From the UHGV virus genome UHGV-0559702: a DNA stretch of 50,417 nucleotides, one strand, 5' to 3'. Source of the DNA: a virus. Of this stretch, positions 2,835 through 50,417 are shown in pieces (the first letter of the stretch is position 1; each line of letters begins with the position of its first letter). The translations under genes and the position numbers were made by a program. A model generated the notes under the pieces. The model made no database searches, was not told the DNA's origin, and worked only from the letters and a program-made list of their open reading frames with translations.

Positions 2835-3905
2835 TTACTTGTTATCGTATTTCAAGGCCGTAGCCCGGATTCGATCCGCAAAGGGGATAATATCTTCCAG
2901 TTTTTCGATGTCTTCCTTTGCGTCTTTATTCTCCCCATCAAACAGTCCGACCCTCCACTGTTTTCCGTTGAAATACAGGCGGCACAGAGGCTTGAGCCTG
3001 TTGTCGTCAAGAAGGATGGAGCAGTAGCTGATGCTGTCCCGCATGGCTACGCGGGCCGGATCAACGGTGCCCACCAGAAGCGATTTGACAAGGTAATACG
3101 CCTCTTTTTCTTCCTCGGTGGTGACTATACGCGAATCCAGCTCTTTTCCTTGTGGGGTATCTTCGGACTCTATCTCTACAATTTCCGGTTTCTGCTGCGT
3201 CATGGCATTTTTCAATCGGTCGTTGATGCGGTCATTGATGAACTGGTCAAGCGCAGCGGTAAGGATTGGAGTGAAGCGATCCAGAACATTTTGCGTGATA
3301 CGTCCATCATACGTCTGGCCGATGAAAAAGCGTGCGAAATCTTCATGCGGCTTTTCCATTTGTTCGGACATGAGGCGTTTGAACTCTCGGTTGTACTTGA
3401 GTTCGTTTGCCGCGCTCATGCAGGCATCCCGATCAAACTTGCCTTTTGCCAGTTTGCGCAGTTCCGGGAGTAGCATTTCGTCCATATCGTCAAGGACGAA
3501 CTCCATATATGGCTTGCTGTCCATTTTGTTGGCTGTTTCAAGATCAGAATAGAACCGGTAACGGTTGCCGTCCGTCAGGATGGCAATGGGGGCTTCCGTT
3601 CCGTGGAAGTAAAGCTGTAGCTGGTTGCAGTGCTTCATGTCGAGAGACGTTCCCAAAGCCTTGCATTCCAGAAGAAGGATAGGCTTGCCGTCAACAAGAA
3701 TCGCATAGTCCACGCGGGCGTCTTTATACTCGCCAATAGGGGCTGAAAATTCGGGCACGACTTCCGCAGGATTGAAAACATCGTAACCAAGGGCCGCGAT
3801 GAAGGGCATCACCAAGGCGTTTTTCGTGGCCTCTTCGGTCTTGAGGCTATCTCCCAGATTCTTTACCTTTTTCGACAATTCAGCAATTCTTTCCGAAAAA
3901 TCCAT
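2835..3905 (-). CDS. Stand-alone HsdR_N-domain (type I restriction R-subunit N-terminal, Mrr/PD-(D/E)xK-like) nuclease-domain protein, 356 aa
   Basis: TEEATKNALVMPFIAALGYDVF...VDYAIL...LLLECK matches the HsdR N-terminal nuclease motif. AT-rich relative to the backbone. GGGAGAGAGG RBS. Confidence 0.75.
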   Translation of the reverse strand: MDFSERIAELSKKVKNLGDSLKTEEATKNALVMPFIAALGYDVFNPAEVVPEFSAPIGEYKDARVDYAILVDGKPILLLECKALGTSLDMKHCNQLQLYFHGTEAPIAILTDGNRYRFYSDLETANKMDSKPYMEFVLDDMDEMLLPELRKLAKGKFDRDACMSAANELKYNREFKRLMSEQMEKPHEDFARFFIGQTYDGRITQNVLDRFTPILTAALDQFINDRINDRLKNAMTQQKPEIVEIESEDTPQGKELDSRIVTTEEEKEAYYLVKSLLVGTVDPARVAMRDSISYCSILLDDNRLKPLCRLYFNGKQWRVGLFDGENKDAKEDIEKLEDIIPFADRIRATALKYDNK

Positions 3906-3940
3906 GGTCCTCTCTCCCTGTTCGGATTCAAGTTAATATA

Positions 3941-4540
3941 TTAAGATTTATATATTTTCTTATAGGTTTTCCAAGAATACAGTCCGGAAAGGATAGTGAG
4001 GATTCCCCATAACAAGGCCCCATTCGTATTGGGCGGCGTTTGGAGGGCACAACTCAGCCACAATACGGCTAGCACTACTGTTATCAGCACTCCAATGATA
4101 AGGGCAATTTTTTTAGGGGGCGTCTGAGAACGTTCATGATGTATAAGCGGGTTTGGTTCTCCACGCTCTTGGGCCAATTGGTCATCAAAAAGGTGTGCGC
4201 GGATAACCTCCATCATGGGGCTATTCACCTTTGCCAATGCCTTATTTCCATTTTTGAACTCAATAATGACGGTAGACTCAGTCGTCTTGCCTCCAGCTAC
4301 CGCACCCGCAACCGCTCCGATGCCTCCAAGCAAGACGCCGCCGACAAGTGCGCCTCCCAAAGTTCCGCCGAGCTTTTTGACCGATTCTTCATTGGCTACT
4401 TCGCAAGAGGCAATACTGGAAAGAAAAAGTTCCTTTGCTCCAAACATTTTTGAAGAGCAACGCAACTTGTTTTTATTCTTAATGTAAATATATTCTTCTT
4501 TCCCGTAGTCCCCTGCCAGAAACTTGATGTAGGTAGCCAT
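3941..4540 (-). CDS. Glycine-zipper membrane protein (199 aa) with two C-terminal TM helices
   Basis: GGTLGGALVGGVLLGGIGAVAGAVAGG glycine-zipper. C-terminal hydrophobic helices IALIIGVLITVVLAVLWL and LLWGILTILSGLY. AAGGGGG RBS. A TATAAT element lies upstream. Confidence 0.65.
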   Translation of the reverse strand: MATYIKFLAGDYGKEEYIYIKNKNKLRCSSKMFGAKELFLSSIASCEVANEESVKKLGGTLGGALVGGVLLGGIGAVAGAVAGGKTTESTVIIEFKNGNKALAKVNSPMMEVIRAHLFDDQLAQERGEPNPLIHHERSQTPPKKIALIIGVLITVVLAVLWLSCALQTPPNTNGALLWGILTILSGLYSWKTYKKIYKS

Positions 4541-4714: not shown

Positions 4715-5503
4715 ATGGAAAATTCCCCCTTGGCTCTTTTCGAGCATGAAAAGTTCGGTTTCCTTCGCGTTGTTGAGCGCAAGGTGCAACCATGGTTCGT
4801 GGCGAAAGACGTGTGCGATATTCTTGAAATGGGCAACCCTCGTTCAAGCCTTGCACTTCTGGATGAGGATGAAAAGGGCGTCCATAGTATGGACACCCCC
4901 GGTGGAAAGCAGGAAATGACAATTATTTCCGAACCGGGCCTGTATTCCCTCATCCTGCGTTCCCGCAAGCCCGAAGCCAAGGCGTTCAAGCGGTGGGTGA
5001 CACATGAGGTCATCCCCTCCATTCGTAAGGTGGGCGGTTACCTGATAGCCAAGCCGGACGATACGCCCGAAGCCATCCTTGCCCGCGCCGTGCTGGTCGC
5101 GCAGGACACCATCAGGCGCATCGAAGCCGAGCGCGACGAGGCTATCCGCACCAAGGCCGAAATCGGTTCACGCCGCGAGGCCACCGCGATGGCAACCGCC
5201 TCCGCAGCCGTCCGCAAGGCTGCGGCTCTTGAGAACGAACTTGGGCGGGGCAGGGACTACAAGTCCGTGAAGGGCATCCCGTGGTTCCTTGACGTCTTCG
5301 CAGATACGCCAGCCGCGTACTCCGTCGCGGGACGCAAGCTTTCCGATATGTCCCGCCGTATGGATTACGAAATCCGGGAAATCGAGGACAGCCGTTTCGG
5401 GAGCGTGAAGGCGTACCACGTCGACGTGATCGAAGCCTTCCGGCTGGCCCTGAAAAACGACCTGAACATGCTGGGCAAGTACCGCCTTCGCCGTGCTGCA
5501 TAG
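4715..5503 (+). CDS. BRO-N domain phage antirepressor (second copy)
   Basis: GGAGG RBS. FEHEKFGFLRVVERKVQPWFVAKDVCDILE...KAFKRWVTHEVIPSIRKVGGY Bro-N signature. Confidence 0.8.
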   Translation: MENSPLALFEHEKFGFLRVVERKVQPWFVAKDVCDILEMGNPRSSLALLDEDEKGVHSMDTPGGKQEMTIISEPGLYSLILRSRKPEAKAFKRWVTHEVIPSIRKVGGYLIAKPDDTPEAILARAVLVAQDTIRRIEAERDEAIRTKAEIGSRREATAMATASAAVRKAAALENELGRGRDYKSVKGIPWFLDVFADTPAAYSVAGRKLSDMSRRMDYEIREIEDSRFGSVKAYHVDVIEAFRLALKNDLNMLGKYRLRRAA

Positions 5504-5504
5504 C

Positions 5505-5522
5505 CGAACTTTGTTCACGGTG
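5505..5522 (+). promoter_or_regulatory. Conserved late-operon motif copy 2 (cGAACTTTGTTCACGGTG)
   Basis: About 55 bp upstream of the head-tail operon start at 5578. Confidence 0.55.
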
Positions 5523-5577
5523 ATTTCGTCCCGGCTCTTTTGCCATGATGACCAAAACAACGGAGGGATACAGAGAT

Positions 5578-5991
5578 ATGGCCAGACCCAAAAAGAATAC
5601 TGCCCCGGAAACAACGCAGGCGACGAAGACAGATATCGTGATGGTTGCACTGAACCGGACGACCGGGATCACGTTCCCCATGCCCGACGGACGCAAGGTG
5701 CTCATCGAAGGCAACGCCGCCAGCCTGCGCGGAAAAGAAAAGGGCGTGCTGCCCGTGGGCGCGTTTGGGCTGACGCGGGTGAACGCCGACGATTGGGCAT
5801 ACATTGAAAAGACCTATGGTCCGCACATGGAAATCTTCAAGTCAGGGCTCATCTTTGCGCAGGCGCGCAAGGCCGACGCCGTGGACGAGGCCTACGAAAG
5901 GGCGGAACTGCGCAACGGGCTGGAGCCCGTGGATGTGGAGAACGACCCCAAGGCGCAGACCGAACCGCTCCAGAGCAAGGCGGGGTTCTAA
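5578..5991 (+). CDS. Hypothetical virion/head-tail protein (137 aa)
   Basis: GGAGGG RBS before the ATG at 5578. First gene of the head-tail connector operon. Confidence 0.55.
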   Translation: MARPKKNTAPETTQATKTDIVMVALNRTTGITFPMPDGRKVLIEGNAASLRGKEKGVLPVGAFGLTRVNADDWAYIEKTYGPHMEIFKSGLIFAQARKADAVDEAYERAELRNGLEPVDVENDPKAQTEPLQSKAGF

Positions 5992-17260: not shown

Positions 17261-17918
17261 CTGGCGCGAAACGATACTTTCGCAGTACGACAACTCTGAA
17301 CGGCTGCTGGCGCTCATCGAATCGATGAATGCCGTCATTGAGCCCACGGCGGATATTGCGGCGTTCTATGAGTCCGTCTTTGACCCAGAAACGGCATTCG
17401 GATGGGGGCTTGACGTGTGGGGACGCATCGTCGCCATTCCGCGTACGCTTGAAGTAGAGGCGACGGACATCAAGCCGTTCGGTTTCTCCGGTTCAAACCT
17501 CAGCAACTTTGGGCACGGTCCTTTTGCATATGAGAGCAAATCGAACACGTTCATACTTCAAGATAACGCATATCATCTTTTGATCTGGATGAAAGCAGCT
17601 TCGAACATCACCGACGGCAGCCTCCTAGATTTGAACAAGATCGTTCATTGGCTTTTCTCGGATCGCGGTCATATTGCCGTCGTGCATGTCGGAACGATGA
17701 AAATACGCTACGTTATCGGCTTCAAGCTCCAGCCATACGAGCGTGCGCTTCTCCTGCGCGATGATGTTCCCCCAAAGCCTGCGGGCGTCGGCTATGACGT
17801 CTATCAAGTCATCCCGAAACATACCTTCGGTTTCGCCGGATCCGGCGGTCAGAATTTCAACAACGGCGTTTTTCAGCCGTATGGAGGCCCTGTAGATGCC
17901 TATTCCTTCGACTCCTAG
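17253..17918 (+). CDS. Tail protein I-like (DUF2313/YmfQ-like)
   Basis: GTG start overlapping the stop of the J gene. Sits between J and the fibre gene. Confidence 0.5.
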   Translation: MDNWRETILSQYDNSERLLALIESMNAVIEPTADIAAFYESVFDPETAFGWGLDVWGRIVAIPRTLEVEATDIKPFGFSGSNLSNFGHGPFAYESKSNTFILQDNAYHLLIWMKAASNITDGSLLDLNKIVHWLFSDRGHIAVVHVGTMKIRYVIGFKLQPYERALLLRDDVPPKPAGVGYDVYQVIPKHTFGFAGSGGQNFNNGVFQPYGGPVDAYSFDS

Positions 17919-20163: not shown

Positions 20164-21192
20164 TCAATCGCCTTCATGCGTGATTCCATGCGTGATGTCC
20201 TCAAAAATGCCTGCGGCCTCCCTGTCGACGCCAAGGTCATGCAGATAGATTTCTGTGGTGCGGATGTTCATGTGTCCAAGCACCTTTTGCGCCCGGCGCG
20301 GGTCTTTAAGATGGGTAGCCATGAAGTGGCGCAGGCTGTGGGCCGCAAAGAACGGTATGCCCGCCTTCTCGCAAAGGCGTTTCATAAGGTACTTGATGCG
20401 CGGCGTGGTGCGCGGATAGGGAAGACCCGTTCCGGGGGCTTCAAAAACGAACCGCTCATTTTCGCGTAAGGCATAGAGACGGAACAGCACGCTATATAAT
20501 GTAGGGCTCATGGCAATCGTGCGTGATTCCCGGTTCCCGCCCCGGCGTTTGCTTGTCCACAGCCGGACGGTCCTGTTTTCCAGATCGACATCTTCCCACG
20601 CCATTTCGCGGATTTCGGAAATGCGCCCCGCCGTATGGAGAAGGCAGAGCAGGAAATCCCGCTCGAACCCTGTAGCGCAGGACATGAGCTTGGCAACGTC
20701 ACCTTTCGGTGGAATATATTTCACGGCCTGCACTGTGGCGAAAGGCTCAGTCTGGCGCGCAATATTGACCGGAACGTACCCCTCTCGTGCGGCCCATGAG
20801 TAAAGCGCTGATAACTCGATACGGTACTTGTTCGCGGATTTTGCGCTCACGGCTTCCTTGGCTGCTTCAAGAAAGGCTTCCAGATCGTTTTTTGTGATAG
20901 TTGAGAATTCGGTTTTAGGTCCGATGAACTTATTTAGCTTTCGAAGAACGCTTTTCTTATAGATGAGTGTGTTCTTCTTGCATCTTCCTTCGCGTTTTTG
21001 AAGATAGAGAGCCGAAACCTCATACAAGGCCAAGCGTTTGGGCATAGTTGCGGATTTCTTGACGATTGATTCCCATTCGAGCGCCTTCATCTTGCTCAAG
21101 AATCCGCCCCGGTACGCGATTCTTTGCCCTCCTTCGAACACTTCCGCCGCGTATCGCATACCATTCTTCGTCTTGTATTTCCTGATGGACAT
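20164..21192 (-). CDS. int: Tyrosine-type phage integrase
   Basis: 342 aa. C-terminal catalytic motifs (...HSLRHFMATHL...GHMNIRTTEIYLH). AAAGAGG RBS. Adjacent to the tRNA-derived att core. Confidence 0.9.
   Translation of the reverse strand: MSIRKYKTKNGMRYAAEVFEGGQRIAYRGGFLSKMKALEWESIVKKSATMPKRLALYEVSALYLQKREGRCKKNTLIYKKSVLRKLNKFIGPKTEFSTITKNDLEAFLEAAKEAVSAKSANKYRIELSALYSWAAREGYVPVNIARQTEPFATVQAVKYIPPKGDVAKLMSCATGFERDFLLCLLHTAGRISEIREMAWEDVDLENRTVRLWTSKRRGGNRESRTIAMSPTLYSVLFRLYALRENERFVFEAPGTGLPYPRTTPRIKYLMKRLCEKAGIPFFAAHSLRHFMATHLKDPRRAQKVLGHMNIRTTEIYLHDLGVDREAAGIFEDITHGITHEGD
20180..20198 (+). promoter_or_regulatory. Second pair of CGTGAT(T/G) direct repeats (P' arm-type site candidates), inside the int 3' end
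   Basis: Same repeat, spacing and orientation as 19948-19966. Confidence 0.4.
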
Positions 21193-35726: not shown

Positions 35727-37136
35727 ATGGCAGTTCAGACGCTTGAACGCGGCATCATGGCCCGCAGGCAGAATGCTCCCGCGCCAAAGCCCGTCATGGC
35801 CTCGGAAGCCCGTGCACAGCTTGAGTCCAGCGTCATTGCCGCGACTCTCTCGGGCATGAACCGGGATGCCCATTTGCTTGGGGATGTACTCGATATTTGC
35901 CCCGCAGGTTGTTTTGTGACGCCGGAAGCTGCGCCGCTTGCCGTGGCTCTCGATTTGCTCCGTCAGTCCGGTCAACGTCCCAATCTCACCGCGTTGGCAA
36001 CGCAGATGCAATCGCGTTGGGCGAAAGATCCTGAACTTTGGCCCGCCCCGGATATGGCGCGCATGGCTGAACTTTCTACGTCCGCGTGGGGTCTGAAAGG
36101 CCATGCCGAGAGTTTGGCCCGAAAGCTTGCCGATGAACATCGCCGGGCGGAACTCCATGCCGGACTGCTCGAAATTGCTGCGGAAGCATCGGTTTACGGC
36201 GTGGACTCCGAATACATCGCTGACCGTGCCCGAAAGATTGTTGAATCTTCGGGAGGGATTCAGGAAGCCGTAACTATGTCGAACCTCATGGGCCGCATTC
36301 GGGCGAAGCTCGATAATCCGCAATCGCTGCGCAAGGTTCAGACTCCGTGGAAAAGCTTGAACAGCGTTTTGCGTGGGGGATTCATGCCGGGGGAATTGAT
36401 CGTTCTTGCCGCTCGTCCAGGCCTTGGAAAGACGGCCTTAGCCGCAAATGTGGCGTTGGGTGCCGCATGGCGCGGAATGGGTGTGCTCTTTGTCTCATGC
36501 GAGATGAGCGACGAAAGCCTTGGGCATCGCCTCATCTCCCGTGTAGGGCGTATCGATGGGCGGTTTTTCCGTGAGGGGATGGGCGTCACGCCGCAGATCC
36601 GTGGAGCTATTGACACCGCCATAGGGCAACTTGAAGCCCTCCCCCTGTCCATCGTTGAAAAGTCCACGGTTCCGATGTGCCCTCGTGAAGTCCGCAGGCT
36701 GGCACGAGGCATCAAGGATTTAGGGCTCATCGTAGTGGACTATCTCCAGCTTTTGCATCCCGACGAGAAGAGCACCAGCAGGGAGCGTGAAATTGCAGAA
36801 ATGTCCAGAGCCTTCAAACAAATGGCTATGGATCTGCAAGTCCCTGTGCTCCTGCTTTCCCAGCTCAATCGTTCAAGCGAAGAGGGCAAGCGAGAGCCCC
36901 GGGTTTCCGATCTCAGAGAGTCTGGAGCGATTGAGCAGGACGCGGACATCATCATTTTGCTGCACACTCGTGACTTGGATCGTGCGAATGCCAGACCAGA
37001 CGTGAAATGCATAGTCGGGAAATCCCGCAGCACGGGAACAGGTGCATCGTTCTTGCGTTTCGAAAAAGCTTTTTCTGATTTTACCGAGGGTGAAGCATGG
37101 GCCGGACGTCCTGCGGTACAGGAAAACGATTTGTGA
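35727..37136 (+). CDS. dnaB: Replicative DNA helicase, DnaB family
   Basis: Walker A ARPGLGKT, VVDYLQLL, and the RecA-like C-terminus of DnaB. GGGAGG RBS. Confidence 0.9.
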   Translation: MAVQTLERGIMARRQNAPAPKPVMASEARAQLESSVIAATLSGMNRDAHLLGDVLDICPAGCFVTPEAAPLAVALDLLRQSGQRPNLTALATQMQSRWAKDPELWPAPDMARMAELSTSAWGLKGHAESLARKLADEHRRAELHAGLLEIAAEASVYGVDSEYIADRARKIVESSGGIQEAVTMSNLMGRIRAKLDNPQSLRKVQTPWKSLNSVLRGGFMPGELIVLAARPGLGKTALAANVALGAAWRGMGVLFVSCEMSDESLGHRLISRVGRIDGRFFREGMGVTPQIRGAIDTAIGQLEALPLSIVEKSTVPMCPREVRRLARGIKDLGLIVVDYLQLLHPDEKSTSREREIAEMSRAFKQMAMDLQVPVLLLSQLNRSSEEGKREPRVSDLRESGAIEQDADIIILLHTRDLDRANARPDVKCIVGKSRSTGTGASFLRFEKAFSDFTEGEAWAGRPAVQENDL

Positions 37137-41184: not shown

Positions 41185-42640
41185 TCCCGCCATCCTTTCC
41201 GATATCCGGAAGGCACTGGCCCGGAGCTGTCTCGCGGCCTTCGTGCGCTACACCATGCCCGGCTACCGCATGGGATGGGTGCATGAGGAAATCTGTTCCG
41301 AGCTAGACGCCTTCCTTGCCGATGTCGTAGCCGGGCGTTCCCCGCGCCTCATGCTGACCATGCCCCCGCGCCACGGGAAAAGCGAGCTCGCCTCGCGCCG
41401 CTTCCCGGCTTACGCCTTGGGCCGCTATCCCGATCTATCCGTCATTTCCACGAGCTACGCCGCCGACCTGTCCTCGCGCATGAACCGCGACGTCCAGCGC
41501 GTCATCGACAGTCCGGAATACCGGGAACTCTTTCCCGGAACGGCGCTGTACGGCAAGAACATCCGCACCGTGGGGAACGGCTCCTACCTACGCAACTCGG
41601 ATATATTCGAGGTAGTGGGGCACGCTGGATGCTACCGTTCCGCTGGCGTGGGCGGCGGCATCACGGGCATGGGCGGGCATATCGTCATCGTCGACGACCC
41701 ATTCAAAGACCGGGCATCCGCCGATTCCCCGACCATCCGCCAGAACGTCTGGGACTGGTACACGTCCACGCTGTACACGCGCCTCGCGCCCGGCGGGGGG
41801 GTTCTCATTATCAATACGCGCTGGCACATGGCCGACCTTTCCGGGCGGCTGCTTGAGGCCGCCGCACGGGGGGAGGGCGACCACTGGCGTGTGGTGGACT
41901 TCCCTGCCATCGCCACGGCGGACGAGCCACATCGTAAGGCCGGGGAAGCCCTGCACCCGGAACGTTACCCGCTGAGCCAGCTCCTTGCCATTAAGAAAGC
42001 CCTCGGCACACGCGACTGGGAGGCCCTGTACCAGCAGCGGCCTACGCCAGACGGCGGCGCCATTTTCAAATCCGAGTGGTTGCGCTTCTGGCTCCCCAAA
42101 GATCTGCCAGAGCAGTTCGACCAGCTCCTTATCTCGTGGGATATGACGTTCAAGGACGGCGACGATACCGACTTTGTTGTGGGGCAGGTGTGGGGCCGCA
42201 AGGGGGCCGACCGCTACCTCCTCGATCAGGTCCGGCGGCGCATGGGATTTACGGATACGGTCGCCGCGTTCCGGGCGCTCGCCGCTAAATGGCCCGGCGC
42301 AGCCCGTAAGCTGGTGGAGGATAAGGCCAACGGCCCGGCGGTTATCGACGCGCTGAAACATGCTGTGCCTGGTATCATCCCCGTGGAGCCGGACGGCAGC
42401 AAGACGGCCCGGGCCCATGCCGTGACCACGTTCTTCGAGGCCGGGAACGTCCTGCTCCCGCACCCTGAGCATTGCCCGTGGGCGCGGGAGTACGTCGCGG
42501 AACTGACACAGTTCCCCGGTGCGCCCCACGACGACCAAGTGGACGCCACAACACAGGCGCTGCGTGATTTCGATACCAAGCGGCCTATGTGCATCAACCA
42601 CGCCATCCTCAATCATCCACGTATGGGAAGGAGAATATAA
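41177..42640 (+). CDS. Terminase large subunit
   Basis: 487 aa. ATPase motifs (MPPRHGKSE; HIVIVDDPF) and a C-terminal nuclease-like region. Confidence 0.85.
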   Translation: MSSPAILSDIRKALARSCLAAFVRYTMPGYRMGWVHEEICSELDAFLADVVAGRSPRLMLTMPPRHGKSELASRRFPAYALGRYPDLSVISTSYAADLSSRMNRDVQRVIDSPEYRELFPGTALYGKNIRTVGNGSYLRNSDIFEVVGHAGCYRSAGVGGGITGMGGHIVIVDDPFKDRASADSPTIRQNVWDWYTSTLYTRLAPGGGVLIINTRWHMADLSGRLLEAAARGEGDHWRVVDFPAIATADEPHRKAGEALHPERYPLSQLLAIKKALGTRDWEALYQQRPTPDGGAIFKSEWLRFWLPKDLPEQFDQLLISWDMTFKDGDDTDFVVGQVWGRKGADRYLLDQVRRRMGFTDTVAAFRALAAKWPGAARKLVEDKANGPAVIDALKHAVPGIIPVEPDGSKTARAHAVTTFFEAGNVLLPHPEHCPWAREYVAELTQFPGAPHDDQVDATTQALRDFDTKRPMCINHAILNHPRMGRRI

Positions 42641-42654
42641 ATGAATGTAAATAG

Positions 42655-43401
42655 TTAGAGTCCTGCTTCTTGACATCTTTCCTTCACAAAAGGGTTCTCG
42701 TTACCTTGTAGTCTTTCAATACGTCTGGCCCGCGTGCATTCCCACGCATCAACCGGATACATCTTGTCCCATGCGTCCATGAGCTGCGTCTGCTGGCGGC
42801 TCATGCGGTAGCGCGGGGCATAGGCGTCGGCCATATACTTGTAGGTCCGGGCAATCTGTCCCCTCGCTCTGATAGGCGGCTCGGCCCTGCGGTCGGCGAT
42901 CTTCATCCCGCAGCTTCCGAAGTCCGGCTCCTCGCCCGGCAACATCTGAAAGTTGTAGTTCTGGCGTAGGGCATTCACCGCGCCGATGGCCGGATACAGG
43001 TTGTACATGTCCGCCTGCATGTACCGATAGTCTTTATTGACCTTCTCGGCACACTTGCGGCCTTTGAACGCCTTTCCCCTGTTGTCCACGCACTGCGCGT
43101 CGCCCTCGCGCCACTCCGCGAACGCCTGCCCGAAGTTCTCGGCGGGGACCACGTGTTCCCATTCCACCTTCCCGGCCCGCTTCTCGTGCTTCGCGGCAGT
43201 AAAACCCTCCGGGAGGGTGACGTTCTTCTTCTCGTCGAACGCCGCCCCGCAGTAGAGCGTGATCCGGTGGTCATGATAGATTTGTCGCTCCAACGTTTTT
43301 TTGGCCTTGCTGAACGAATCGTTCCATTCGTTGCCCGCGGCCTGCGCCTCGGACGTCATAACTAGCGCGGCCAGCAAAAACACCATGATGCTTTTGTACA
43401 T
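42655..43401 (-). CDS. Endonuclease I (EndA/Dns-type) periplasmic DNase with signal peptide; moron
   Basis: Signal peptide MYKSIMVFLLAALVMTSEAQA. YCGAAFDEKK...KVEWEHVVPAENFG... matches the Endonuclease_1 family. Opposite strand to the flanking head genes, with its own AT-rich promoter. Confidence 0.75.
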   Translation of the reverse strand: MYKSIMVFLLAALVMTSEAQAAGNEWNDSFSKAKKTLERQIYHDHRITLYCGAAFDEKKNVTLPEGFTAAKHEKRAGKVEWEHVVPAENFGQAFAEWREGDAQCVDNRGKAFKGRKCAEKVNKDYRYMQADMYNLYPAIGAVNALRQNYNFQMLPGEEPDFGSCGMKIADRRAEPPIRARGQIARTYKYMADAYAPRYRMSRQQTQLMDAWDKMYPVDAWECTRARRIERLQGNENPFVKERCQEAGL

Positions 43402-43485
43402 GCGGATACCTCCCTAAAGGTATCCATGTATATATAGATTAATCTATATTGATACAATATGAAAGGTGTCCGACATCCATGCACC

Positions 43486-43503
43486 CGAACCTTGTTCACG
43501 GTG
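43486..43503 (+). promoter_or_regulatory. Conserved late-operon motif copy 4 (cGAACCTTGTTCACGGTG)
   Basis: 34 bp upstream of the portal start codon. Confidence 0.55.
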
Positions 43504-43536
43504 TGTTTTCTTCTTCGCTCATAGCATGATGCCCCC

Positions 43537-45084
43537 ATGAGCAAGAAGCGCACTTTTCGACACGCCACCTCCATACCTCCGCAAGTGCAACCGTCGCGCC
43601 GTCTGAATCTCTCCCCGGACGTGCGCGGCGGCCTTGCTCAGTCTTTGCCGCCTACGCCCGACGACATCAGTCGGCTGTACGGTCCTGCGAAGACGCTCGG
43701 CGCGCCCAAAGAGGTGCAGCTTGCGATGGATACGCGGCTTGCGGATTCCGGCGTCTATTCCCTGCTCCAGCACTCGCTTGAGCTTGGGGTCGGGATTGCG
43801 CCGCAATTCATGGGCTACGGCGTCCTCCAGAATCTTGCCCAGAACGGATTGATTCGTGCCTGCGTCGAGACGGTATCCGACGACATGACTCGAGCATGGA
43901 TTGAGTTCAAGCGCGAAGGGGAGGGCGGCGCCGAGTCATTGCTCACCGACCTTGCGCAGGCGTGTAAGAGGTTCGCACTGCAACGCCTTTTCCATGATGC
44001 GACCGAGCTTGTGGGGTACGAGGGCGGGGCCTTCCTTTTCATCGACACCGGAGCAGTCGGGGAAGAGCTGGAACGCCCGCTGAACGTCAGCCCGTATTCC
44101 GCCGAACTCAGGCCCGGCGGCGTGCTGCGCTTCGTCGTCATCGACCCCGTGAACGTCTTCCCCGGAGACTATAACAGCCTTTCGCCGCTTGAGCCGGACT
44201 ACTTCCGCCCGCGCTGGTGGTGGGTGCTCGGACAGCGGGTACACGCCTCGCGCCTCATCCGATTGGTTGCGAACGAATGCCCGGTGCTGCTGCGGCCCGC
44301 CTACAATTTTCTAGGCATCCCGCAGGCCCAGATCCTCTGGGATTACGTCCTGCATTTTCAGGAATGCCGCGCCGCCGAAGCCCGGCTACTGACCAAGTTT
44401 TCGCTGACCGTCTTCAAGACGAAGATGGAAGACATCCTGTACTCAGCCGGGGGCACCGCTCAGATCGATACCCGCATCCGGTACATGATTCAGACCATGA
44501 CCAATGACGGCGTGCTTGCCGTCGACAAAGAATCGGAAGACGTGGTCAAGCTGGAAACCCCGCTTTCAGGCGTGACCGACATCGTGCGCCAGTCCCTTGA
44601 AATCCTCGCCGCCCTGAACCGAACCCCGGCGGTCAAGCTGCTCGGCATCAGCCCGTCAGGGTTCAATGCCACGGGCGAATCGGACATCCGCAACTATTAC
44701 GACCATGTCAGGAGCCAGCAGGAGAAAGTCCTGCGCGACGGCATCAAGAAGGCGCTCGACTGTATCCAGCTCTACCTGCGCGGAACCATCGACCCTTCCG
44801 TGACTTTCGACTTCGCGCCCCTCGGCGAAGAGGATAGGGCGGCCCTTGCGACGCTCCAGAAGACCAAGGCCGACACCATCGCCGTCTACATGGATCGGGA
44901 CATCATCTCTCAGGAAGAAGCCCGGCAATCCCTTGCCTGTGACCCGGACAGCGGCTTCTCCAACATAGCCCCGCCGGAAGTGCCGCAGGGCAACGGAATG
45001 CCCGACGCTCTGCCGGAAGCCGGGGAAGGGGGCTTGATGCCCGACATCGACGACGTGGACAAGGCAGGGGCCGTCTATGGCTAA
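43537..45084 (+). CDS. Portal protein (Mu gp29/DUF935-like)
   Basis: 515 aa, and its position directly after terminase and before the Mu-F-like gene. Confidence 0.75.
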   Translation: MSKKRTFRHATSIPPQVQPSRRLNLSPDVRGGLAQSLPPTPDDISRLYGPAKTLGAPKEVQLAMDTRLADSGVYSLLQHSLELGVGIAPQFMGYGVLQNLAQNGLIRACVETVSDDMTRAWIEFKREGEGGAESLLTDLAQACKRFALQRLFHDATELVGYEGGAFLFIDTGAVGEELERPLNVSPYSAELRPGGVLRFVVIDPVNVFPGDYNSLSPLEPDYFRPRWWWVLGQRVHASRLIRLVANECPVLLRPAYNFLGIPQAQILWDYVLHFQECRAAEARLLTKFSLTVFKTKMEDILYSAGGTAQIDTRIRYMIQTMTNDGVLAVDKESEDVVKLETPLSGVTDIVRQSLEILAALNRTPAVKLLGISPSGFNATGESDIRNYYDHVRSQQEKVLRDGIKKALDCIQLYLRGTIDPSVTFDFAPLGEEDRAALATLQKTKADTIAVYMDRDIISQEEARQSLACDPDSGFSNIAPPEVPQGNGMPDALPEAGEGGLMPDIDDVDKAGAVYG

Positions 45085-48252: not shown

Positions 48253-49266
48253 ATGAATCCGACTTTTGAACAGGCCAAGCGCTACGGCTTTATCTTCCCG
48301 GGCGCCCGCATGTGGGCAACTCCGGAGAACCGCGCCCGCATTGCGCAGGACGCCGCGCTCATCACTACTCCGAACACGACCGTCCCCGCCGAGCTTCTGG
48401 CGTATATCGACCCGATGGTCATCGAAATCCTGACCGCGCCCCGGCGCGCCCGTGAAATCTTCGGTGAAGAGAAGAAGGGCGATTGGACGACCCCGTACAT
48501 GAAGTGGCGCGTGGACGAAATGACCGGAAAGACCGAGCCGTATTCCGACTATGCCAACGGCACGACTTCGGGCGTGAACTCCGAATGGCAAACCCGCGTG
48601 CAGTACGTCTTCCAGACGTCCATCACCTACGGCGACTTTGAAGTGGACATGTCGAGCACGGCAAAAGTCAACCTCGCTGCCTCCAAGCAGCGTGCGGCCG
48701 CCAACGTCATCGACATCGACCAGAACCGTTTCTACCTGCTCGGAGTCGCCGGGAAGGAAATCTACGGCATCCTTAACGATCCGAACCTCCCTGCTGCGAT
48801 CACCGCAGGGGCCACGGGCACGGGCGGCTCCACGAAATGGGCCGACAAGACCACGGTGCAGATCTACAATGACGTCCTCGCCCTGTTCGCGCAGCTTTCC
48901 GAGCAGTCCAGCGGCCTCATTGACAAAGACACGCCCCTCAAGCTCTGCCTCTCCCCCGAACTGGCCGTTCGCCTCGGCGCGGCTACCGATTTCAACGTGT
49001 CCGTGCTGGATATGTTGAAGCGGTACTTCACCCGCATTGACATCGTGACCGTCCCCGAGCTGCACAGCATGACCGCCGGGGAAACCATGTTCCTCATCGC
49101 CCCCGAAGTGAACGGGCAGCGATCCGGCACGCTGGCCTTCGGAGAAAAGATGCGTGCCGGACGCGTCGTGCCCGACCTGTCCAGCTTCCGTCAGAAGTTC
49201 GTCGGCACCACCTACGGCGGTATCGTGCTCATGCCCTTTGCCTTTGCGCAAATGACTGGAGCCTAG
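48253..49266 (+). CDS. Major capsid protein (DUF2184/XkdG-like)
   Basis: AGGAGG RBS. 337 aa. Follows the DUF2213-like protease. Confidence 0.7.
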   Translation: MNPTFEQAKRYGFIFPGARMWATPENRARIAQDAALITTPNTTVPAELLAYIDPMVIEILTAPRRAREIFGEEKKGDWTTPYMKWRVDEMTGKTEPYSDYANGTTSGVNSEWQTRVQYVFQTSITYGDFEVDMSSTAKVNLAASKQRAAANVIDIDQNRFYLLGVAGKEIYGILNDPNLPAAITAGATGTGGSTKWADKTTVQIYNDVLALFAQLSEQSSGLIDKDTPLKLCLSPELAVRLGAATDFNVSVLDMLKRYFTRIDIVTVPELHSMTAGETMFLIAPEVNGQRSGTLAFGEKMRAGRVVPDLSSFRQKFVGTTYGGIVLMPFAFAQMTGA

Positions 49267-49339: not shown

Positions 49340-49561
49340 TCATTTTCCAAGCTGCTGTATATTTGCGTCCAGCCACATCTCGACTGCTTCCCGTACTACC
49401 TGTGAGCGTAGGATACCCCTATCCGTACATACATCGTTCAGCCGTTCCCAGACATGATCCGGCATAGATACAGTCTTTACTGTTGCACGATTTTCAACCT
49501 TTTTTTTACGTCCAGATCCTTTACGGCGTCCACCCTGCTTTTTTTCTTGTGCATCATTCAT
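49340..49561 (-). CDS. Ribbon-helix-helix (CopG/Arc-like) DNA-binding protein
   Basis: ATVKTVSMPDHVWERLNDVCTDRGILRSQVVREAV RHH pattern. Overlaps the upstream ORF by 8 nt. Confidence 0.55.
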   Translation of the reverse strand: MNDAQEKKQGGRRKGSGRKKKVENRATVKTVSMPDHVWERLNDVCTDRGILRSQVVREAVEMWLDANIQQLGK

Positions 49562-50417
49562 TTGTTGAATCTCCCCTCATCAAAAAGCTATCTTCTTCCC
49601 ACTGGCTGCGCCAGAAATAGCCTTTCACCCTCTTTTCAGTAGAGACGTATTCTGTAATGCCGATCAGCGGCTCGGCAAAGGCATGAAGATGTCCGTCCCG
49701 TGCCCCTCCGCGAACTTGAAAGTCTGTGATTGCTGAAAAACCGATATTCGTTGCGGACAGCCATTTTCCGCTGTACGTTCCTATCGCGGTTACAAGCTGT
49801 TCAATGGGGTTTCCAGGGCTCATAACGTCGCGCCGATCCAAAACAACTTTCCCGGCGGGAATGCACTCTAGAAGCGTAGAGAGGTCATCATGCAAAGCCG
49901 GGGCGTCGTATGAAGTGATCAGCCCACCGGAGAACTTTCCGAAGTTCAAGAAAAGATCCACGGCGTTCGGTACGGAATGCAGGGCTTCCGACAGTTCAAA
50001 GATAAGGCTTACCCGTATATGCCCCGTTGCACCGGGCTGCAAAGAGAGATGTGTGGAGCCTTTTGCGTAGTCGCTCCCGTTACGGGATTTTTCAAAAGTA
50101 AAAGCCGCTCCTAATCTTTGGCTAGGCTCGAAAATAGCGGTTTCATGCTCCCCAAGGGGTTCGATGCTATGCACAACAAGGCATACTCCGGTAACTTTGG
50201 GACCATGCATCTCGCGCTCCAGTGCATGTCCCATCCCCCATGCTGCAAAGAGGGGCGCGCCGTTGAGCATAGTATAATTCGTCAAGATGTTTGCCGTTTG
50301 TACAAAGAGATTGGAAAGGATCAGGTAAGTTCCCTTTCCTGACGCCTGACGGCTGGCATTTCCGCGCACGGATTTGGGTGTAGAAAGAAAAACAGGATAT
50401 TGTATCGCCTTTTTGGA
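49554..50417 (-). CDS. Hypothetical protein, 5'-truncated by the window end (at least 288 aa). Continuous in frame with 1..528 if the contig is circular.
   Basis: The open frame runs without a stop to the last base of the window. The window end is a codon boundary. Confidence 0.5.
   Translation of the reverse strand, partial: SKKAIQYPVFLSTPKSVRGNASRQASGKGTYLILSNLFVQTANILTNYTMLNGAPLFAAWGMGHALEREMHGPKVTGVCLVVHSIEPLGEHETAIFEPSQRLGAAFTFEKSRNGSDYAKGSTHLSLQPGATGHIRVSLIFELSEALHSVPNAVDLFLNFGKFSGGLITSYDAPALHDDLSTLLECIPAGKVVLDRRDVMSPGNPIEQLVTAIGTYSGKWLSATNIGFSAITDFQVRGGARDGHLHAFAEPLIGITEYVSTEKRVKGYFWRSQWEEDSFLMRGDSTNE

Follow-up and report, generated by a model that had tools for sequence, protein, structure and literature searches.

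The virus genome UHGV-0559702, a stretch of 50,417 nucleotides called the window below, carries an endA/dns-type gene for a predicted nuclease of the Endonuclease I family, inserted antisense between the large terminase gene (terL) and the portal gene. In the reading favoured here, to which a probability of about 0.6 is given, endA is a moron, with control elements of its own, of a temperate phage of Bilophila wadsworthia, and its product would be a Sec-exported, sequence-nonspecific DNase that destroys incoming or extracellular DNA. This reading draws on the family assignment of the product, on the presence or absence of the gene in closely related phages and on upstream control elements kept in divergent copies. 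An earlier, sequence-only reading had pointed to the gene, a perfect palindrome, an inverted repeat and an AT-rich upstream region, and direct reading finds all of them where it had placed them.

Identity and predicted export of the nuclease

42655..43401, minus strand: endA/dns-type gene for an Endonuclease I family precursor of 248 amino acids, with the ATG start at 43401 and the TAA stop at 42655
43339..43401, minus strand: signal-peptide coding part (MYK / SIMVFLLAALVM / TSEAQA), with cleavage predicted after AQA (AQA-A)

Assignment of the endA product to the Endonuclease I (EndA/Vvn/Dns) family is near-certain as judged by sequence comparison and a predicted fold. The product scores 102.9 bits with Pfam PF04231 (Endonuclease_1), whose gathering score is 25, at an E value of 3e-29 and over positions 67-233 of the 235 in the profile, and the same family is assigned in precomputed annotation to 120 of the 120 homologs listed. 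All five distinct Endonuclease I sequences of the PDB (Vvn and the EndA proteins of V. cholerae and V. salmonicida) match it over the whole mature domain with E values from 9e-50 to 2e-46, the Vvn 1OUO match being at 8.8e-50, and the identity to the solved sequences is 41-44%. PHROG 6861, annotated as 'unknown function', was matched at 2e-63. An AlphaFold2 model of the product (predicted local distance difference test, pLDDT, 73; predicted template modelling score, pTM, 0.73) suggests a His-Me finger backed by a C-terminal alpha-helical domain, with low confidence near residues 77-84 and 140-146, which are the active site. A Foldseek search with this model returned Endonuclease I structures in all of the top seven positions (probability 1.00, TM(target) 0.81-0.82), the next match having an E value of 0.28. 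The Pfam score of 103 bits, the PDB matches, the predicted fold and the catalytic residues together bear out the enzyme identity that had been proposed earlier.

Residues E82-H83, R115 and N143 align in HMMER with E79-H80, R99 and N127 of Vvn, the PDB chain index being offset by 18 from the Vvn numbering, and all of them are invariant across the 28 homologs aligned. Chain 1OUP has an H-to-A substitution at the position aligned with H83. The roles of the Glu-His pair, the phosphate-stabilising Arg and the Mg-binding Asn of Vvn are said to have been described by Li et al. in 2003. These roles are consistent with the H-to-A chain 1OUP and with PMC5714182. Six cysteines (51, 104, 117, 164, 222, 243) are each invariant in the same 28 homologs. 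The pairwise ratio of nonsynonymous to synonymous divergence (dN/dS) between the window endA and eight other copies is 0.07-0.13; by this codon comparison, therefore, the gene is under purifying selection.

The chromosomal enzymes of PF04231 (Vvn, VcEndA/Dns, VsEndA and E. coli EndA) share with the window protein the catalytic Glu-His, Arg and Asn as well as a signal peptide, at the identity and predicted fold similarity given above. The window gene differs from them in being phage-borne, in a 13-residue insertion near residues 101-113 relative to Vvn and in having six instead of eight cysteines.

The clear signal peptide of the sequence-only reading is supported by recognisable n-, h- and c-regions and by the AQA-A motif. 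The predicted Sec signal, called by sequence rules only, consists of a lysine-containing basic n-region and an 11-12-residue hydrophobic core (Kyte-Doolittle 3.1), with A at positions -3 and -1; neither a lipobox nor a twin-arginine (Tat) motif was found at the endA N-terminus. The predicted mature product has 227 amino acids and an isoelectric point of 8.9. In some other loci (loci compared with the window carry L numbers), namely L096/L097 (~4960-5708) and L182/L183 (4001-4744), the mature domain is 78-87% identical while the signal peptide and the 5' region are unrelated, which indicates a putative module exchange at the signal-peptide/mature junction.

The control region of endA

43432..43449, no strand assigned: perfect 18-bp palindrome ATATAGATTAATCTATAT, a putative operator with the consensus TATATAGAT-NN-ATCTATATA
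43452..43457, minus strand: TTGTAT, conserved TTGYAY motif and candidate -35 element, 3-7 nt upstream of the palindrome
43397..43430, minus strand: hairpin with a 14-bp stem and a 2-nt GC bulge, covering the Shine-Dalgarno (SD) sequence GGAGG (43409-43413) and the AUG (43399-43401)

From sequence comparison it is concluded that the palindrome and the hairpin are probably selected cis-elements of endA and not phage-specific operators. Synonymous divergence (dS) between the window copy and homologs of 78-88% identity is saturated, with values of 0.7-1.1. In the window copy, L184, L114, L109 and L181, the ~65 nt preceding the ATG can still be recognised as alike, the sequence further upstream being unalignable, and the TTGYAY motif, the palindrome and the hairpin are all kept in these five. 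The consensus occurs as a perfect 20-mer in L114; L109 and L181 have perfect palindrome arms with an altered centre, and L184 has one arm mismatch. In L098 and L095, the hairpin is kept and the palindrome is degenerate. Neither element is found in L096/L097 and L182, which have a different signal peptide, or in the homologs of ~70% identity, whose endA start overlaps an upstream open reading frame (ORF). Conservation across divergent copies, together with compensatory changes in the hairpin, speaks for both being functional control elements, as had been supposed.

The palindrome was confirmed at 43432-43449 by direct reading. A perfect palindrome of at least 18 bp is present in 23% of Markov-1 random 50-kb windows and so is not significant alone, while shuffles of the 135-bp intergenic region hold such a palindrome in 0.03% of cases. 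Since the window-wide occurrence is not significant, the real support of the palindrome is comparative: among 1.83 Mb of related loci, 49 of the 50 matches with at most two mismatches lie directly upstream of endA. No further copies or half-sites beyond chance were found in the window, which rules out a family of phage repressor operators. A scan of IMG/VR with TATAGATNNATCTATA was uninformative, with unrelated AT-rich contigs among the matches listed, and a full-text literature search for the palindrome sequence returned irrelevant eukaryotic matches only. The window contains three further perfect 14-bp palindromes, GTCTGTCGACAGAC, CGCCGGATCCGGCG and GAAAAAGCTTTTTC, at 210-223, 17834-17847 and 37062-37075; this is the chance level, as 99% of random windows hold at least one of 14 bp or more.

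The AT-rich upstream region described earlier is real, with a GC content of 22% over 43426-43470 compared with 56% in the whole window. This conserved 5' region comprises the TTGYAY motif and the palindrome, which contains TATATA. The motif takes the form TTGTAC, TTGCAC, TTGTAT or TTGCAT in L184, L114, L109, L098 and L181, and it may serve as a -35 element.

Four of the five SD bases and the entire AUG are paired within the hairpin stem. The folding energy of the hairpin is -15.0 kcal/mol (z = -4.2), and none of 200 dinucleotide shuffles folds equally well. The sequence-only reading had described a 7-bp inverted repeat bracketing the SD sequence. The repeat is present as GGATACC (43404-43410) and GGTATCC (43419-43425), but its full length is 8 nt (GGATACCT/AGGTATCC) and it is part of a larger stem that also hides the AUG. 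A stem occluding the SD sequence and the AUG is predicted in nine of nine sequence variants at -10 to -20.5 kcal/mol. In L095, a compensatory change converts CAUGCGG/CCGCAUG into CAUACGG/CCGUAUG (G-C to A-U); both hairpin arms are rewritten in L181 (GGACGUAC/GUACGUCC), and a 2-nt deletion eliminates the bulge in L091. An Rfam search with the hairpin gave no matching family. An RNA thermometer was ruled out in silico, the predicted unpaired probability of the SD sequence being 0.22-0.28 throughout 20-70 C.

A different arrangement is seen in Desulfovibrio prophage islands, where the start codon of the ~70%-identical endA overlaps the stop codon of an upstream ORF of 213 or 94 amino acids that belongs to no Pfam family:
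L107 3360-4001, L108 106-747, L110/L111 3717-4001: upstream overlapping ORFs of the ~70% homologs
The overlap suggests translational coupling with a partner protein in these homologs. The partner might possibly act as an inhibitor or an export helper.

Dedicated regulation, which had been read from the palindrome, holds in part. The half-sites are kept across divergent copies, but nothing about them is phage-specific, as the palindrome accompanies the gene in chromosomal and unrelated-phage copies. Because it travels with the gene in this way, the regulator is presumably host-encoded, and the reader of both the palindrome and the hairpin would have to be supplied by the host.

The cassette, its insertion site and the phage

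42625..43484, no strand assigned: inserted cassette of ~860 bp, delimited by alignment against the empty-site relatives L029 and L008
41177..42640, plus strand: large terminase gene terL (flank), Terminase_6N/6C match
43537..45084, plus strand: portal gene (flank), divergent from endA, Phage_portal_3 match at 3.7e-80

By its presence/absence pattern against empty-site relatives in sequence alignments, the endA cassette is a moron. Homology to these relatives runs up to ...CCACGTAT (42624) and starts again at CCGAACCTTG (43485); where the cassette is inserted, ~24 bp of the empty junction are replaced and the final ~5 codons of terL are changed. When terL, endA and portal were mapped in each of 78 loci around portal homologs, the terL-portal gap was only 61 bp in L008, L017, L025, L026 and L029 (portal identity 94-97%). 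The moron status assigned earlier is upheld by this precise polymorphism against five empty-site relatives. Among relatives with a portal identity of at least 91%, 18 carry endA, one (L007) has a remnant and ~10 have nothing or other cargo, and at a portal identity of 79% or less endA was never present among the mapped relatives. The remnant (L007 4651-4923) is a decaying copy that retains endA codons 15-105 only, the promoter, the hairpin and the 3' half being lost.

Classical morons of lambdoid and HK97-type phages are likewise discrete insertions between conserved genes of the structural module and are missing from close relatives; the endA cassette is also similar to them in having an AT-rich 5' region and in being oriented against the late operon. 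It differs from them in lacking a detectable terminator and in its GC content at third codon positions (GC3), which at 0.77 equals that of the surrounding phage genes, so that the composition is not foreign.

The antisense position of endA between the large terminase and the portal, as reported before, agrees with the ORF list and with the Pfam matches of both flanks. The gene lies within the late (packaging and head) cluster and is convergent with terL. Because the two stop codons are 14 nt apart and there is no detectable terminator, opposed read-through is expected, the endA transcript entering terL antisense and late transcripts crossing endA antisense (42640-42655). Mutual interference of the two kinds of transcript is possible.

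The terL-portal junction is a cargo hotspot in these phages, with or without endA:
L004 1818-4053; L013 2739-4053; L016 3589-4515; L023/L024 ~3122-4054; L030 2924-4563: cargo loci in the terL-portal hotspot
The cargo consists of SocA/Panacea with a 137-aa partner, ORF6N proteins, P22_AR_N antirepressor-like proteins and an IS200/IS605 insertion sequence with tnpA and tnpB. The ORF6N-domain proteins give weak PADLOC PDC-S05 matches. With IS605 present in the same hotspot (L030), cassette ends of the IS200/IS605 type were considered for endA and rejected: there are no convincing terminal hairpins, and the right-hand spacer varies between copies. Several close relatives have an intein in terL (Hint_2, Intein_splicing; CFAAGTLV directly after ...GAPHDDQ), corresponding to about position 42545 of the window:
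L027 3707-4945, L030 1601-2830, L035 3707-4945, L049 2845-4035: terL intein loci
A nested 213-aa ORF in this intein resembles a homing endonuclease. The window terL has no intein.

Homologs of endA with 70-88% identity occur in at least four other prophage types:
a phage with a lambda-type portal and GpA terminase
a Mu-like phage
a P22_AR_N island
a pRha/tape-measure island
In L180/L181, endA is located beside the portal and GpA terminase of the lambda-type phage, together with HicAB and restriction genes. In L182/L183, it lies between an HTH_3 protein and Mor of the Mu-like phage, an arrangement reminiscent of Campylobacter CJIE1. Other copies have chromosomal-looking surroundings: L109 and L115 (Bilophila sp.) lie between transporters of the major facilitator superfamily (MFS), and L184 between GGDEF, LysR and histidine-kinase genes. 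The L109 and L184 copies are 84-88% identical and possess the same regulatory cassette. Taken together, these sequence contexts indicate that endA has been captured repeatedly in Desulfovibrionaceae, by unrelated prophages of at least five types, which argues for a benefit to the element itself.

Sequence evidence supports the window as a temperate phage of Bilophila wadsworthia. The window contains a tyrosine integrase (20164-21192), an ERF recombinase and a DnaB helicase. Bilophila wadsworthia ATCC 49260 has an endA of 97% identity, and a different Bilophila species has one of 84%. In the metagenome collection, 218 blocks list exactly this endA protein, and copies lie on contigs of 86-175 kb. 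A 463-codon ORF reads across the window ends and is as long as its intact counterpart in L105, which shows that the 50,417 bp of the window make up a closed circular phage genome. With the terL-endA-portal region as query, 50,697 deposited phage genomes gave distant terminase matches only and no close relative at the nucleotide level. Bilophila wadsworthia is a common sulfide-producing pathobiont of the human gut. To our knowledge, hardly any work has been done on its phages.

A second antisense cargo island lies directly after the major capsid gene (48253-49266):
49554-50417 joined to 1-528; 512-1057; 1262-1546; 1563-2807; 2835-3905, all on the minus strand: ORFs of the second island
Its 463-aa ORF matches Cas_Csy2 (42-44 bits against a cutoff of 25). 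A neighbouring protein of 166-181 aa appears as AcrIF11_ADP_ribosyl in the precomputed table and gives a weak ART-PolyVal match by Pfam, and the island continues with Bro-N and HSDR_N proteins. By these matches it may be an anti-CRISPR (type I-F) module.

Precedent, proposed role and rival explanations

Endonuclease I is rare in deposited phages. A protein search of the 50,697 genomes found five genuine homologs only, four in Helicobacter prophages and one in Campylobacter phage CAM-P21, all annotated as Endonuclease I and 30-32% identical to the window protein (tblastn). No viral members of PF04231 appear in a census of 2017 (PMC5714182). According to the same source, enzymes of the family lower DNA uptake and transformation and are inactive in the reducing cytoplasm. 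DNases of mobile elements, namely CJIE1 Dns, the CJIE2/4 nucleases and IdeA/SxnA of integrative and conjugative elements (ICEs), degrade incoming DNA and block natural transformation (PMC12378983). Such Campylobacter prophage DNases are toxic if constitutively expressed and dissolve biofilms (PMC4372405).

The direct precedent is Dns (CJE0256) of the Mu-like prophage CJIE1 of C. jejuni, which is likewise a prophage-borne accessory gene for a DNase with a signal peptide, the enzyme being extracellular or periplasmic (PMC12378983 and PMC4372405). The CJIE1 Dns blocks natural transformation; for the window endA such a role is a prediction from sequence. The phage type and position also differ, the window endA being placed antisense at the terL-portal junction. 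The genes annotated as 'endonuclease I precursor' in Campylobacter and Helicobacter phages differ in their ~30% identity and in having hosts of the Campylobacterota and not Desulfovibrionaceae; the palindrome and the SD/AUG hairpin are features of the window endA, and the Campylobacter genes were compared without regard to these elements. IdeA/SxnA of the SXT-family ICEs of V. cholerae are similar in being periplasmic nucleases of a mobile element that degrade incoming DNA and lower transformation (PMC12378983). They differ in being ICE-borne instead of phage-borne, and are likened by description and not by PF04231 homology. The window endA thus appears, like CJIE1 Dns and IdeA/SxnA, as a predicted exported nuclease on an integrative mobile element. 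The kind is already known and the mechanism is not new; the novelty lies in the host lineage (Bilophila, Desulfovibrionaceae), in the terL-portal hotspot as the position of the gene and in a conserved control cassette of two layers.

In the favoured reading, endA would have its own promoter in the AT-rich region and be transcribed antisense to the late operon and independently of it. A host-encoded dimeric regulator would gate this promoter at the palindrome, which lies between the TTGYAY motif and the TATATA stretch, so that bound regulator could exclude RNA polymerase. The hairpin would throttle translation, and little of a potentially toxic nuclease would be made. The precursor would then be exported by Sec and acquire its disulfides in the periplasm, and the product, predicted to be a sequence-nonspecific beta-beta-alpha-metal endonuclease, would cut double-stranded DNA, either periplasmic or extracellular. 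By analogy with Campylobacter CJIE1 Dns and Vibrio ICE IdeA, the pay-off would most likely be a reduction of DNA uptake and of recombination that could replace the prophage. Degradation of extracellular DNA (eDNA) and scavenging of nucleotides would be side benefits to the host.

Several results weigh against this reading. The gene is missing in about a third of near-identical phages and decayed in L007, and is therefore dispensable. A hairpin of -15 kcal/mol would be expected to allow very little translation unless it is opened, and the gene could be nearly silent. A scan for the sigma-70 consensus upstream of endA gave no sites, manual placement of -10 and -35 elements being ambiguous, and a consensus scan of 42300-43700 found no terminator-like site. 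NCBIfam NF011716, the equivalog of E. coli EndA (deoxyribonuclease I), scores 197.7 bits against a cutoff of 372; by this profile the product belongs to the family without being an ortholog-level counterpart of enterobacterial EndA. Cysteines number six against eight in the aligned Vvn chain, the two missing ones being absent together. A PADLOC search with the endA product found no defence-system match, and a literature search on competence in Desulfovibrio or Bilophila gave nothing usable.

The strongest competitor, unlikely but to be taken seriously, is a lysogenic conversion that benefits the host, as the sequence-only reading had suggested: the nuclease would degrade eDNA of mucus, biofilm or neutrophil traps, or scavenge nucleotides and phosphate, and any effect on DNA uptake would be incidental. 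V. cholerae Dns and VcEndA belong to the same family and are reported to act on the eDNA of biofilms (PMC3212620), and Campylobacter prophage DNases remove biofilms (PMC4372405). Copies of 84-88% identity that share the regulatory cassette and lie in chromosomal-looking surroundings (L109, L184) fit a physiological gene of the host, which is a gut pathobiont. However, repeated presence on unrelated prophage types suits a benefit to the mobile element, and the sequence fits a periplasmic enzyme as well as a released one. Mechanistically this explanation overlaps the favoured one and differs only in the beneficiary.

The remaining explanations are less likely. It is quite improbable that the periplasmic nuclease serves to destroy competing phage DNA from aborted or misdirected injection. 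In T4, excluded superinfecting DNA is degraded by host endonuclease I, and both the predicted periplasmic location and the defence-type cargo (a Panacea/SocA pair) of relatives in the same hotspot would suit such a role. Tailed phages, however, normally deliver their DNA across the periplasm through a protected conduit (PMC10883804), the cassette includes no partner exclusion protein, and the negative PADLOC search counts against this explanation too. A literature search on prophage periplasmic nucleases in superinfection exclusion yielded nothing usable. That the cassette is a silent passenger, hitch-hiked into a recombination hotspot and not meaningfully expressed because the hairpin blocks translation, is very improbable. 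The -15 kcal/mol hairpin over the SD sequence and the AUG, the missing consensus promoter, and the absence or decay of endA in relatives would be expected of such a passenger, but a dN/dS of ~0.1 within the phage lineage itself (window against L113 and L004), the invariance of all catalytic residues and a hairpin and palindrome conserved with compensatory changes point to selection on regulated expression. Scarcely any weight falls on a helper of the lytic cycle, in which a nuclease made late would digest released host DNA, lower viscosity and free virions. Its location inside the late cluster is what such a helper would have, but endA is antisense to the late operon, shares its 5' control region with chromosomal copies and has a Sec signal, and related phages propagate without it.

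A bolder version of the favoured reading, in which endA protects the mobile element rather than feeding or arming the bacterium, can be offered only tentatively and is itself rather unlikely. In this version, TTGYAY, TATATAGAT-NN-ATCTATATA, the SD/AUG hairpin, the signal peptide and the nuclease would form one autonomous, doubly gated module that hops between Desulfovibrionaceae chromosomes and unrelated prophages, and that a specific signal switches on, with a host regulator acting at the palindrome and an RNA or protein opening the hairpin in trans. If true, the selected function would be to prevent loss of the element via transformation or to break down superinfecting DNA.

An exported nonspecific DNase could alter DNA uptake by the host, prophage stability and the handling of eDNA in mucus, biofilms and neutrophil traps by the lysogen. 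The prophage is widespread in the metagenome collection (218 blocks listed). Its endA would extend the Campylobacter and Vibrio precedent of exported DNases on mobile elements to another phylum, and the operator-like palindrome with the SD/AUG hairpin represents a compact, conserved regulatory cassette that is open to experimental dissection.

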